From the NCBI GenBank assembly GCA_947164865.1, contig CAMUYA010000016.1:1603-65602 (forward strand): a DNA stretch of 64,000 nt. The letters run 5' to 3'. How positions within the stretch are numbered: position 1 is the first letter of the stretch; every line of letters begins with the position of its first letter. A program made the position numbers and the translations under genes. Below the pieces are notes generated by a model that did not search any database, was not told the DNA's origin, and saw nothing but the letters and a program-made list of their open reading frames with translations. This document shows positions 60,177 to 63,398 of the stretch, in pieces. This stretch comes from an uncultured Lachnospiraceae bacterium. GTDB lineage: Bacteria; Bacillota; Clostridia; Lachnospirales; Lachnospiraceae.

Positions 60177-60246
60177 TTATCGGAACACTCCGGCTATTTA
60201 TGAACTGTTATTTGCGTAAAACGTATATTTTATGTTGTAAAACGCG
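60177..60246 (-). promoter_or_regulatory. Sigma28-like -10 plus a 21-bp-period direct repeat (promoter of the coiled-coil gene)
   Basis: TCCGATAA at 60177-60184 (minus); plus-strand GTAAAACGTA at 60216 and GTAAAACGCG at 60237. Confidence 0.65.
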
Positions 60247-60248
60247 GC

Positions 60249-60278
60249 GAGGCACCCTGTTTGGATACAGAGTGCCTC
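60249..60278 (-). terminator. Stem-loop after the FliD-like gene
   Basis: GAGGCACUCUGU-6 nt-ACAGGGUGCCUC, 12 bp with one G-U; weak U tract. Confidence 0.5.
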
Positions 60279-60305
60279 ATTATGGTAGCAAGCGGTTTTC
60301 AATTA

Positions 60306-61046
60306 TCAAAACCAGTCGTTAAAACTTGATCCCGTGTAACCATAGCTGCCGGCTGATGTTCCGTATCGGCCATAAATACCGTTGTTCACACCGGAATATC
60401 TGCTCTGTTGCTCCGCCGCTGACTCAAGTCTCTGTGCCGAAGATCCTATTATCCTCGCATAGGATCCATTCGTTCCAAGTACATTTTTTACCTTATCAAA
60501 ATCAGCACCTTTGAACGTTTCTTCGTTCACGGACATTTTCCCGTCACTTCCGATGGTTATTCCGATGCTTCCAAGGCTCTTTGTCATTATACCGGACATA
60601 CGGGTCATGCTGTTTGCCGCATTTTTTACAGCCACATTCGAGGTGCTACCGACAGCCTTTAAAGTATCGTTGTAATCGGAAGCGAATTCGCTTACAGCCT
60701 TATATGCGGCATCGGCATCATACTTTTCTCTGTTTGAAAACAAACTGTCTTTTCCGGTATCCGAGAGTTTCTTTGCAGTTGCAACCAGTTCACTGCTTTC
60801 CTTTGAAACGACTGACAGTTCACTGTTTCCCTCATACATCAGGCGATTATTCCTGCTTAATGCGGTAGTTTTCTGTGTGGCATTTGTGCTGTTATTCTTT
60901 CCGTAATAAGCCTTAAGCGCCTTTGTGTATGCTCCGGATCTGATGCTGGAAAGCTGAGAAAGATTACTTAAAATAGAGTTTCCGTACCCGGATCTGCCGG
61001 AAGAGCCAAAAAAGCTGCCATAGTTAAAACTGCTAAGCCTTACCAT
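60306..61046 (-). CDS. Short FliD (flagellar cap) C-terminal-like protein
   Basis: S/G/N-rich N-terminus; AVSEFASDYNDTL and LGSIGITIGSDGKMSVNEE resemble FliD_C motifs; start ATG 61046 after AGGAGGTG. Confidence 0.55.
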   Translation of the reverse strand: MVRLSSFNYGSFFGSSGRSGYGNSILSNLSQLSSIRSGAYTKALKAYYGKNNSTNATQKTTALSRNNRLMYEGNSELSVVSKESSELVATAKKLSDTGKDSLFSNREKYDADAAYKAVSEFASDYNDTLKAVGSTSNVAVKNAANSMTRMSGIMTKSLGSIGITIGSDGKMSVNEETFKGADFDKVKNVLGTNGSYARIIGSSAQRLESAAEQQSRYSGVNNGIYGRYGTSAGSYGYTGSSFNDWF

Positions 61047-61082
61047 TCTTTCCACCTCCTTCCTTACAGGTATTTACTGTAA

Positions 61083-61150
61083 TTATCGGTCATCACAGTC
61101 CTTAAACAAGGGATTATCTGTGAAGCGCACTTTTATTGTCGTAAACTGCG
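61083..61150 (-). promoter_or_regulatory. Sigma28-like -10 plus a 21-bp-period direct repeat (promoter of the FliD-like gene)
   Basis: ACCGATAA at 61083-61090; GTGAAGCGCA at 61120 and GTAAACTGCG at 61141. Confidence 0.65.
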
Positions 61151-61154
61151 TCGA

Positions 61155-62555
61155 TCAGCCCATCATCATTACATTCAGTATAAAGAATAACTCTCCCCCT
61201 TTTTCCTCCTGGCGTATTTCTATATCTCCCCTATACTTTCCCGCAATACTTCGTATATTCTTAAGTCCATACCCATGACCTGATTCCTTTTTTGTCGATT
61301 CAATAAGTCCATCTTCGTACAAGACCGCTCTGTTAACACATTTGTTTCTTATACTGATAAGGAATGTATTTTCTTTTTCTACAGACTTGATCACTATTCG
61401 CGGATCGGGCAGTCCTTCTGATGCCTCAACCGCATTATTCAAGGCATTTGACAATACTACGCTCATATCAAACGGATTGATAGCAAGCTTTTCCGGATAT
61501 ATAAACAAGCTTTCAAACCCTATCCCCGCATTTTTACACTCATCAGATATTTCAGACAAAACGATATCCGTTACCGCGTTTCCTGAAACAACAGCCGGCC
61601 TGAAAGCAGATAAGCGGTCCCTGAACTCCCCAATGTAATCGATCAGTTCCCTGTTCTTTCCGCTCTCCGCAAGTCCTTCTATCACTGCCAGGTGATTTCC
61701 CATATCATGACGCATCGCCCGCATCTTTTCATACAGTTCATCCACATGCGCCGTATATCTGTACGTATCACCCACCTGTTTTTCAACAGATTCTCTGATA
61801 TATTCTTCCTCCTGCTTTTCTTTCAATTCCTGATAAAGCACTATGGTGATGATAACAGGAAAGAACGATAGTATCGAAAACAGTATCCTGAAAGGATTCG
61901 CAGGAATGTTTTCCTTTATGCTGCCATTGGCTATCCCATCCATCCAAAGCCTGTAGTATGATGATACAATAGGCTTTACCAGGAGCAGAGAGCAGACAGG
62001 TGTCAATAATATTATGAGCTCCCGCCATGTTATTTCCGCACTCTTGCGCTTATATACCCTATGCAACACCAACGTCACAGCAAGCAGCAGTATCAGCGGA
62101 AGAATATAAAGGATAAGATTCCATATTATAAATTCCAAAACTATGGCTTTCATGCTGTTACTGTACCAGTCGAAGCCAAGCACAAGATCTCTTTCAAAGA
62201 ATCCGATCTCTATAAACAGTTCAATGGATAACCAACTGAATAATCTAAACAGTACACATAGCAGGATCTTCTGCATCGGATTACGTCTTCCATCCAGCAG
62301 CCACAAGATGACAAACGATATGACAGTTATGCCCAGCGTTATTATGGCTGCAATGTTTCTTGAAACTTCCGTCTGATTGTTTATTACCGTGATCATTCCG
62401 TAAACAAACGCCGTTAAATATGCTGTTCTCTGCTTTACAACGAAGGGCTTAAGCCAGATGGCAAATATGACAGCAACAAGAATAAGATAAACATTAACAA
62501 GCACGGACACATATGTATTGGCAAATGCATCAAAATTATCAATGATAAATCCCAT
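61155..62555 (-). CDS. AgrC/VirS-like GHKL sensor histidine kinase
   Basis: Multi-TM N-terminus; MRHDMGNH, SGNAVTDIVL, NALNNAVEA, HGYGLKNI; start 62555 overlaps the LytTR stop (TAATG), RBS AGGAGG. Confidence 0.92.
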   Translation of the reverse strand: MGFIIDNFDAFANTYVSVLVNVYLILVAVIFAIWLKPFVVKQRTAYLTAFVYGMITVINNQTEVSRNIAAIITLGITVISFVILWLLDGRRNPMQKILLCVLFRLFSWLSIELFIEIGFFERDLVLGFDWYSNSMKAIVLEFIIWNLILYILPLILLLAVTLVLHRVYKRKSAEITWRELIILLTPVCSLLLVKPIVSSYYRLWMDGIANGSIKENIPANPFRILFSILSFFPVIITIVLYQELKEKQEEEYIRESVEKQVGDTYRYTAHVDELYEKMRAMRHDMGNHLAVIEGLAESGKNRELIDYIGEFRDRLSAFRPAVVSGNAVTDIVLSEISDECKNAGIGFESLFIYPEKLAINPFDMSVVLSNALNNAVEASEGLPDPRIVIKSVEKENTFLISIRNKCVNRAVLYEDGLIESTKKESGHGYGLKNIRSIAGKYRGDIEIRQEEKGGELFFILNVMMMG

Positions 62556-63295
62556 TACAAAGATTCCCTCCTGGTGTGATACGACATGTATGCTCTTATC
62601 AGCTCCTGATACTTTCCCCTTGCCACCGGAATATCGGAATCCGACATATGTACACATTTGGAATCATAGGACTTTACGTATCTCAGATTTATGAGATATG
62701 CCCTATGTACTCTGAAATAATCTTTTCCTGCTATTTTTTCCAGATCGGAAATTCTGCCATAATACTCGATATCATCCCTGTTTGCCATATGCAGCACGAT
62801 ACGTCTGTCAAAAATCTCCGCATATCTGACTTCCGAAAGGATCACTCTCGTATTTGCGCCGCCGCTTTTAACTGTTATGGTCCTGACCGCATTCTCTCCC
62901 CCGGCATTTTCAAGAAGTGTTCTTTCTATAGCTTTCTGCTCTTCCGCCTTCTCGATCGCACTTGTAATGACACTCTTTATCCTGTTTTTACTGAATGGCT
63001 TGACGATGTAATTGAAAGCACCGACATCAAATGCGTTGAATACCTGCTCTTCCAGAGCTGTTACAAATACAAGCACGGTTTTCTTCCCTGCTTCCCTTAA
63101 AAGCTTTGAGGCCTTCATTCCGTCAATTCCGGGCATCTGGATGTCAAGGAATAAAATATCGGCGTCAAAATCATGTCGTAATAATCCTTGAGCATCTGTG
63201 TAGAATTCTATTTCTATACTGCCGGATACATCGCGCACTGACTCGGCTATCAGTTCCCTTATTCTCTTCTCGTCATCACATATAGCTAATTTCAT
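62555..63295 (-). CDS. LytTR-family response regulator
   Basis: MKLAICDDE, LFLDIQMPGIDG, FVTA, YIVKP, FRVHRAYLINL; start 63295 after AAAGGA. Confidence 0.95.
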   Translation of the reverse strand: MKLAICDDEKRIRELIAESVRDVSGSIEIEFYTDAQGLLRHDFDADILFLDIQMPGIDGMKASKLLREAGKKTVLVFVTALEEQVFNAFDVGAFNYIVKPFSKNRIKSVITSAIEKAEEQKAIERTLLENAGGENAVRTITVKSGGANTRVILSEVRYAEIFDRRIVLHMANRDDIEYYGRISDLEKIAGKDYFRVHRAYLINLRYVKSYDSKCVHMSDSDIPVARGKYQELIRAYMSYHTRRESL

Positions 63296-63330
63296 ATCGG
63301 TTCCTTTCCTAAGGGCATACCACAATTATT

Positions 63331-63398
63331 TTATCGGCATTCGAGAAATATAATCGATCGCTTCTGCGCGAAAAGCACTTTTTCTGCAGTGAACTGCA
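63331..63398 (-). promoter_or_regulatory. Sigma28-like -10 plus a 21-bp-period direct repeat (autoregulatory promoter of the LytTR/GHKL pair)
   Basis: GCCGATAA at 63331-63338; GCGAAAAGCA at 63368 and GTGAACTGCA at 63389. Confidence 0.65.

Follow-up and report, generated by a model that had tools for sequence, protein, structure and literature searches.

Which RNA polymerase reads the promoters of a small regulon whose operators resemble those of a LytTR response regulator and whose -10 elements resemble those of flagellar genes? The question is raised by four genes on the minus strand (59170-63398) of a 64,000-nucleotide (nt) stretch of contig CAMUYA010000016.1, referred to here as the window, from an uncultured Lachnospiraceae bacterium. 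They encode a LytTR response regulator, a histidine kinase, a short FliD-like protein and a coiled-coil protein. The source genome is that of a rumen Lachnospiraceae, and this locus is 99% identical to the metagenome-assembled genome UBA3632. In silico, the LytTR regulon itself is as good as certain. With a rough probability of 0.55 we favour promoters that would be activated by the LytTR regulator and read by the flagellar sigma factor SigD (FliA, sigma-28); SigD would be their common reader, and the regulator operon and perhaps the FliD-like gene would have an overlapping sigma-A promoter.

Three promoters in the window share one architecture, in which two 10-nt direct repeats precede a box of the sigma-28 type. 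The elements are listed below, with positions relative to the predicted transcription starts.

63389..63398, minus strand: distal repeat of the regulator promoter, TGCAGTTCAC, at predicted -75..-66, kept in 22 non-identical orthologous promoters
63368..63377, minus strand: proximal repeat of the regulator promoter, TGCTTTTCGC, at predicted -54..-45, centre -49.5
63331..63338, minus strand: box of the regulator promoter, GCCGATAA, a sigma-28-type -10 at predicted -15..-8; predicted start G at 63323
61141..61150, minus strand: distal repeat of the FliD-like promoter, CGCAGTTTAC, beginning 4 nt after the kinase stop codon
61120..61129, minus strand: proximal repeat of the FliD-like promoter, TGCGCTTCAC
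61083..61090, minus strand: box of the FliD-like promoter, ACCGATAA, at -15..-8; predicted start A at 61075
60237..60246, minus strand: distal repeat of the coiled-coil promoter, CGCGTTTTAC
60216..60225, minus strand: proximal repeat of the coiled-coil promoter, TACGTTTTAC
60177..60184, minus strand: box of the coiled-coil promoter, TCCGATAA, at -15..-8; predicted start G at 60169

The repeats of each unit are separated by N11. The box follows after N29 at the regulator and FliD-like genes and after N31 at the coiled-coil gene, 2 nt further from the repeats, and the ATG lies 35, 36 and 44 nt beyond the box, respectively. The strings, spacings and ATG distances reported in the initial annotation are exact to the base. 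It had also remarked on the absence of the canonical sigma-28 -35 element TAAA, which belongs 15-16 nt upstream of the -10, and indeed -34..-31 reads TCGA, TTGT and TCAT in the three promoters; one TAAA is present at the coiled-coil promoter but is 3 nt too near. Scanned with the sigma-70 consensus, the region gave no excess of sites over shuffles; the scan called one of the three units, that of the coiled-coil gene, as TTCATA-17-GATAAT.

How rare is this arrangement, and who carries it? The pattern YRCNNTTYRC-N11-YRCNNTTYRC matches three times in the window, against 0.01 matches expected from 100 shuffles of it. The whole 2.94-Mb genome holds four matches, of which only three are promoters, and the genome-wide scan that had been called for adds none to those of the window. 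The fourth match (G000:C11:87720-87750) was rejected as a promoter; it is a 21-bp tandem duplication (TTCTGCGTTTCACTAAGATC, two copies) within a coding region. The genes belong to a module that combines a LytTR regulator and an AgrC-type kinase with a mini FliD-like gene and a variable set of orphans; it is found in about 25 rumen Lachnospiraceae genomes or contigs. Among 34 genomes of the genus, both the module and the sites are confined to 8; the repeat pair followed by N28-31 and CCGATA occurs there at 15 sites, all of them at the module, and a reversed-pattern control gave 0. When the pattern was made to end in CGA, 12 module genomes yielded 27 sites versus 1 control match, all but one of the sites being linked to the module. 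The sole unlinked site with the full architecture in these 12 genomes lies in NK4A144 (G053, C37:5420-5485) and reads TACCGTTTAC-N11-TGCCGTTCAC-N31-CCGA.

A repeat-pair scan of all loci provided 66 non-identical promoters from the approximately 25 genomes or contigs, comprising 22 of regulator genes, 17 of FliD-like genes and 27 of other genes. The bases C-13, G-12 and A-11 were numbered after the solved sigma-28 open complex, (-15)GCCGATAA(-8) (PMC12784957). CGA lies 31-33 nt after the second repeat in 66/66 promoters, with C-13, G-12 and A-11 invariant, while the stretch between repeats and box varies freely. Further positions are strongly kept: C at -14 (55/66), T at -10 (59/66), A at -9 (64/66), T at -34 (61/66), T at -1 (54/66; C is the usual alternative) and a purine at +1 (65/66). 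The common box is CCGA(T/A)A at -14..-9. The repeats follow the consensus TGCnnTTCAC with a 21-bp period, and the 10-nt repeats and 11-nt spacer of the three window units recur in all 66 orthologous promoters. By the predicted starts the repeats lie at -75..-66 and -54..-45, with centres near -70.5 and -49.5 (or -50.5). Comparison across orthologues, also proposed at the outset, thus finds repeats, CGA box and spacing kept.

LytTR proteins recognise repeats of 9-11 nt with a spacer of 11-13 nt, and YpdB binds a direct repeat of GGCATTTCAT, which the module repeat TGCATTTCAC resembles (PMC4847170). The assignment of the repeats to the LytTR type holds: they are 10 bp long with an 11-bp spacer, they adjoin a LytTR regulator, and the sites are found only in genomes that carry this regulator. 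From the observed architecture, conservation and co-occurrence we infer that the regulator binds the repeats. Their presence before its own operon implies autoregulation, as the initial annotation had it, and the system probably autoregulates in the manner of AgrCA/ComDE-type systems. We also tried to read a third LytTR half-site at -35 but discarded it, since it is offset by 15 bp and not 21 from the second repeat.

Two leaders carry further conserved elements. In that of the regulator (63314-63322, minus strand, +2..+10) TAGTATGCC or TGGTATGCC is kept in about 20 of the 22 orthologous promoters; GTATGCC in this leader was tried as a -10 and rejected, A-11 being missing in several orthologues. 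The FliD-like leader (61065-61080, minus strand) contains an inverted repeat, ACAG-N7-CTGT, spanning the predicted start from -5 to +11. Its pairing is kept with other letters in orthologues, as AGGT/ACCT and CAAAATAG/CTGTTTTG (L061, L064, L067, L094, L096). Because the 5' arm lies upstream of the predicted +1, the inverted repeat could serve as an operator, or else transcription may begin elsewhere than predicted.

Is the box then a flagellar one? Sigma-28 contacts (-15)GCCGATAA(-8), and position -7 is not conserved for this factor (PMC12784957). The CGA bases that are invariant in the 66 promoters are those contacted by sigma-28. In the class of 'other' genes T-7 is present in only about 9/27 promoters, and the hexamers read GATATC, GATACC, GATTCA or GAAATA. 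T-7 is the base that sigma-A needs most after A-11. The best sigma-A -10 in this class has a median score of 2.4 bits and no consistent position, versus 8.0 bits for TATAAT. The genome's own canonical SigD promoters, cTAAA(G/C)T-N14-CCGATATA-N5-TG, precede three flagellin genes, a FliK-like gene and further genes; they have the box of the regulon promoters at the same distance to the same start dinucleotide, and the variants CCGAAATA, CCGATACA, CCGAAAAA and TCGATAAG are common to both sets. Since the flagellin promoters pair this box with a canonical TAAA -35, SigD is its simplest reader. It is from this observed likeness to SigD promoters that we infer the sigma factor used and the start sites.

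In a few regulon promoters the repeats are followed by a perfect TAAA-N16-CCGATAT, for example at L061:5794 and at the L089 regulator gene. Homologues of regulon families b and d within the source genome (C23:8267, with CCGAAATA, and C7:11456) have canonical SigD promoters. In one species (locus L063) a palindromic insertion has taken the place of the repeats before the coiled-coil orthologue (71% identity), which carries TAAAGT-N14-TCGATATA; this box lies 44 nt from the ATG, as does TCCGATAA in the window, and the two are positionally homologous. Ordinary TGnTAnAAT promoters precede the genome's other LytTR regulators, and CCGATA is therefore no general mark of LytTR promoters. A FliA/SigD gene is present in the genome (C22:51824-52489, 260 bits against a cut-off of 189.6), and FliA scores above the cut-off in 18/20 module genomes. 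The two remaining genomes, which lack FliA and FlhA yet have flagellins, are incomplete assemblies of flagellated organisms.

We note that L063 contains a palindromic element of about 75 bp resembling repetitive extragenic palindromic sequences (GGGGGACGGAGTTGGGGGTTCAT...ATGAACCCCCAACCCCGTCCCCC) at both 5775-5850 and 2560-2610. It is found upstream of the regulator promoter and also replaces the repeats at the promoter of the coiled-coil gene.

The genes and terminators of the locus are as follows (aa, amino acids).

62555..63295, minus strand: response regulator, 246 aa, with receiver (PF00072, 6e-18) and LytTR (PF04397, 1.4e-12) domains
61155..62555, minus strand: histidine kinase, 466 aa; its start overlaps the regulator stop codon
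60306..61046, minus strand: mini FliD-like protein, 246 aa, with a family-level likeness to FliD
59170..60132, minus strand: acidic coiled-coil protein, 320 aa, without known domain
60249..60278, minus strand: G+C-rich hairpin 3' of the FliD-like gene, terminator-like with a weak T tail, read from the sequence and uncalled by the terminator scan
63453..63480, minus strand: intrinsic terminator of the gene upstream of the regulator, called by the scan of the region

The hairpin parts the second unit from the third, and the terminator at 63453..63480 is predicted to insulate the regulator promoter. The N-terminal 245 aa of the kinase contain 6-7 hydrophobic segments; its C-terminal part consists of a SpoOB_a-type helix and a HATPase_c_5 (GHKL) domain, the type found in AgrC and ComD. 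The best NCBIfam matches of the regulator are BtsR and AgrA, both far under their cut-offs. The AgrA score is 57.5 bits against a cut-off of 400, and the AgrC score is 39.2 against 500. A genome-wide search for AgrB (PF04647) found nothing, nor was a peptide gene noticed, AgrD being too short to search for. The description of the system as Agr-like therefore applies to the domain types of kinase and regulator, and extends neither to the family scores nor to the rest of an agr locus.

The identification of the box as a sigma-28 -10, made in the initial annotation, has comparative support short of proof: CGA in 66/66 promoters, a T-7 that is often dispensable, an identical box in the genome's SigD promoters, and the swap at L063. 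A number of observations weigh against it. All 17 FliD-like promoters keep CTTG at -35..-32 together with T-7, giving TTGnnT-N16-GATAAT, a fair sigma-A promoter; in the window CTTG is at 61107-61110 and the box with the next T spells GATAAT. Distant FliD-like orthologues have A and not C at -14, with ACGATAAT instead of CCGATAAT, and so depart from CCGATAA. Regulator promoters keep TAnAAT at -10..-5 (TAAAAT, TAATAT, TAGAAT, TACAAT, TATAAT), which varies exactly where sigma-A tolerates variation and reaches at least 5 bits in 18/22; the window's regulator box overlaps TAAAAT in this way. In the 'other' class T-35, T-34 and A-32 fit TTGACA as well as TAAA. The genome's canonical SigD promoters have T-8, and all three window boxes have A. 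At L085 the same type of repeat is followed, at the same distance, by a plain TGGTATAAT. A second group of FliD-like homologues, with different repeats of 21-bp period, reads TTGATT-N16-GATTAT. Every module genome is flagellated, so presence and absence across genomes does not discriminate, and the starts predicted by the SigD and sigma-A readings are 0-2 nt apart. The regulator and FliD-like promoters of the window are the least clear cases for a flagellar sigma factor.

These points could be taken to mean that the promoters are ordinary LytTR-activated sigma-A promoters that, like those of agr, com and pln, have a weak -35, with GATAAT or TAnAAT as the -10, the more so as the other LytTR systems of the genome have sigma-A-type -10s. 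The resemblance to CCGATAA would then arise from overlap with the hexamers, and C-13 and G-12 would serve another purpose, such as keeping the promoter weak. We regard this explanation as doubtful. It needs two -10 registers (-12 and -10), although a single one is shared by the repeats, the CGA and the T-purine start; in the 'other' class T-7 is missing from roughly two promoters in three, and some have no usable hexamer at all. G-12 and C-13 in 66/66 promoters are unexpected, since a promoter that need only be weak would drift, and neither the exchange for a canonical SigD promoter at L063 nor the SigD promoters of the paralogues is explained. It is improbable that CCGA(T/A)A is read by another sigma factor or by a DNA-binding protein, for instance a repressor overlapping the -10. 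The genome does encode a SigH-like sigma factor (208 aa) beside an rRNA methyltransferase gene and an extracytoplasmic function (ECF)-type sigma factor (159 aa) with an adjacent gene; the CGAAT(A) of sigma-H and ComX boxes is similar to CCGAAATA, and the FliD-like leader has the inverted repeat across its predicted start. However, most boxes are CGATA and not CGAAT, and the SigH-type and ECF-type readings were rejected because their -35 elements, AGGA-type or AAC-type, are lacking at the proper distance; moreover the flagellin genes use the same box with the same start spacing and a canonical TAAA -35. A single transcript running from the regulator promoter through all four genes, with the internal repeats as relics or attenuating sites, seems least probable of all. 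No terminator separates the kinase stop codon from the FliD-like gene and the repeats start 4 nt past that stop, but the internal repeats, spacing, CGA box and start dinucleotide are strongly kept while the intervening sequence drifts, the hairpin follows the FliD-like gene, and at L066 a coiled-coil-like gene divergent from the operon carries its own copy of the promoter architecture.

What do the promoters control? Searches of genomes and metagenomes, for which alignment A2 was used, alignment A1 being too diverse, gave 74 loci encoding relatives of the 246-aa protein, among them those of the cultured isolates Lachnospiraceae bacterium NK4A144 and NK4A179. The order regulator-kinase-FliD-like gene is kept at every full-module locus; at L087 the FliD-like gene comes before regulator and kinase. 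What lies 3' of the FliD-like gene varies by species, being either the coiled-coil gene, as in the window, or one to three other orphans, and at least eight orphan families were seen in this position, none of them with a Pfam domain. The regulon of three promoters initially described is present in full in the window; its third member is not conserved as such. Other FliD-like homologues (45-52% identical) have no adjoining two-component system (L071, L074-L077, L079 and L080, upstream of about 5000 or 3750). Their promoters have a different direct repeat of 21-bp period, TAGTCGTTTTAYG, followed by TTGATT-N15-CGATTAT, and judging by these sites they probably form a sister regulon with an unlinked regulator.

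The FliD-like protein is short at 246 aa; FliD (HAP2, the flagellar cap) has about 400 aa or more, with FliD_N and FliD_C. The window protein has no Pfam match of its own and FliD_N (PF02465) was not found, whereas FliD_C (PF07195) is matched by 17/27 members of its family. The top PDB match of the family profile is Pseudomonas aeruginosa FliD (5fhy, E 1e-3, over about 50 residues), and the protein is weakly similar to a 403-aa Lachnospiraceae FliD. A structure model has a confident helical core at residues 70-220 and disordered termini; searched against the PDB, it returned generic helical bundles only and no FliD. The label 'FliD-like' thus appears valid at the level of the family only. In searches of Pfam and NCBIfam, neither the FliD-like and coiled-coil proteins nor six other products of the regulon matched a domain, and a Sec signal was seen in none of the regulon products, the FliD-like protein included. 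Because the termini are disordered and FliD, to which the protein is akin, is a flagellar export substrate, export of the regulon products through the flagellum is a reasonable conjecture by analogy, and no more.

Genes outside the regulon were also noted. A truncated paralogue of the FliD-like protein (142 aa) is encoded at G000:C3:134972-135400 behind a sigma-A-like promoter. Canonical SigD promoters at G000:C7:11456, C4:946, C23:8267 and C24:38498 drive orphans without signal peptide (415, 254, 389 and 130 aa), and the flagellar regulon of this organism therefore already holds many uncharacterised products.

How might the system work, if its promoters are LytTR-activated SigD promoters? The polytopic AgrC-type kinase would sense a signal and phosphorylate the LytTR response regulator. 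The regulator would then bind the two 10-bp direct repeats before its own operon, giving positive autoregulation, before the FliD-like gene and before one to three further orphans, of which the coiled-coil gene would be the target in the window. The core promoters would offer SigD a good -10, CCGA(T/A)A, and a degenerate -35; because only T-34 of the latter is kept, SigD polymerase would need the bound regulator. The result would be an AND gate, in which expression of the regulon requires both the signal and active SigD, the latter being available once the basal body is complete. An overlapping sigma-A hexamer at the regulator promoter, and perhaps at the FliD-like promoter, could supply the basal expression that the sensor needs. 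The regulon products, lacking a Sec signal, may leave through the flagellum by analogy with FliD. The signal thus probably gates extra flagellum-linked proteins. The proposal in full is put forward tentatively: in Lachnospiraceae of the rumen and gut, a LytTR regulator would recruit SigD polymerase, and the resulting AND gate would control variable orphans that leave by the flagellar export apparatus.

Alternative-sigma promoters are usually controlled via the sigma factor itself. A LytTR regulator working with SigD would, if true, be a new pairing and reveal a way for a bacterium to place its late flagellar programme under an additional, private signal. Should sigma-A read the promoters, what is left is a LytTR regulon of an ordinary kind, if well conserved, whose CGA box has no explanation. 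Among the abundant Lachnospiraceae of rumen and gut, the module also marks an uncharacterised protein family that is conserved yet varies in number, and the regulon proteins are candidate flagellum-exported or flagellum-modifying factors that have cultured carriers in NK4A144 and NK4A179.

How does the module compare with known systems? With the LytTR systems AgrCA, ComDE, PlnBCD, VirSR and YpdAB/BtsSR it has in common a regulator of receiver and LytTR domain and a polytopic kinase of the HATPase_c_5 type, and likewise two direct repeats of 10 bp, set 11 bp apart, that lie upstream of a weak -35. It differs in that these systems use sigma-A promoters, whereas the module has a sigma-28-type -10 and flagellum-related orphan targets. 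Full-text literature searches for LytTR with sigma28 or SigD returned no description of such a pairing. One LytTR regulator that acts with an alternative sigma factor is AlgR, at the AlgU-dependent algD promoter of Pseudomonas aeruginosa, which it activates. There the sigma factor is of the ECF type (sigma-22), the AlgR sites are far upstream, and the product is alginate and not a flagellar gene set. In Campylobacter jejuni, sigma-28 promoters drive orphans that lack a signal peptide together with the late flagellar genes, and some of these orphan proteins are exported by the flagellar apparatus. To our knowledge no dedicated two-component gate controls these non-flagellar sigma-28-dependent proteins, which are unrelated to those of the module. 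The term flagellar coexpressed determinants, used for such proteins, occurs in PMC6196472 and PMC9856085. A parallel in promoter design is provided by aer and trg of Escherichia coli, sigma-28 promoters activated by CRP from -49.5; their authors note how seldom a sigma-28 promoter has been found to depend on an activator (Hollands et al. 2010, PMC2859248). The combination regarded as novel in the initial annotation is thus new as regards the partners, LytTR and SigD, and not as regards activation of a sigma-28 promoter as such. At aer and trg a flagellar-sigma promoter needs an activator whose site is at -49.5, and the predicted centre of the module's proximal repeat is -49.5 or -50.5. CRP is a helix-turn-helix dimer on one palindrome; the activator proposed here is a LytTR regulator that, once phosphorylated, would occupy two direct repeats. 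Recognisable -35s are retained at aer and trg, which encode chemoreceptors, and use of sigma-28 is experimental there and deduced from comparison here. Both, by our proposal for the module, combine the flagellar programme with a second signal.

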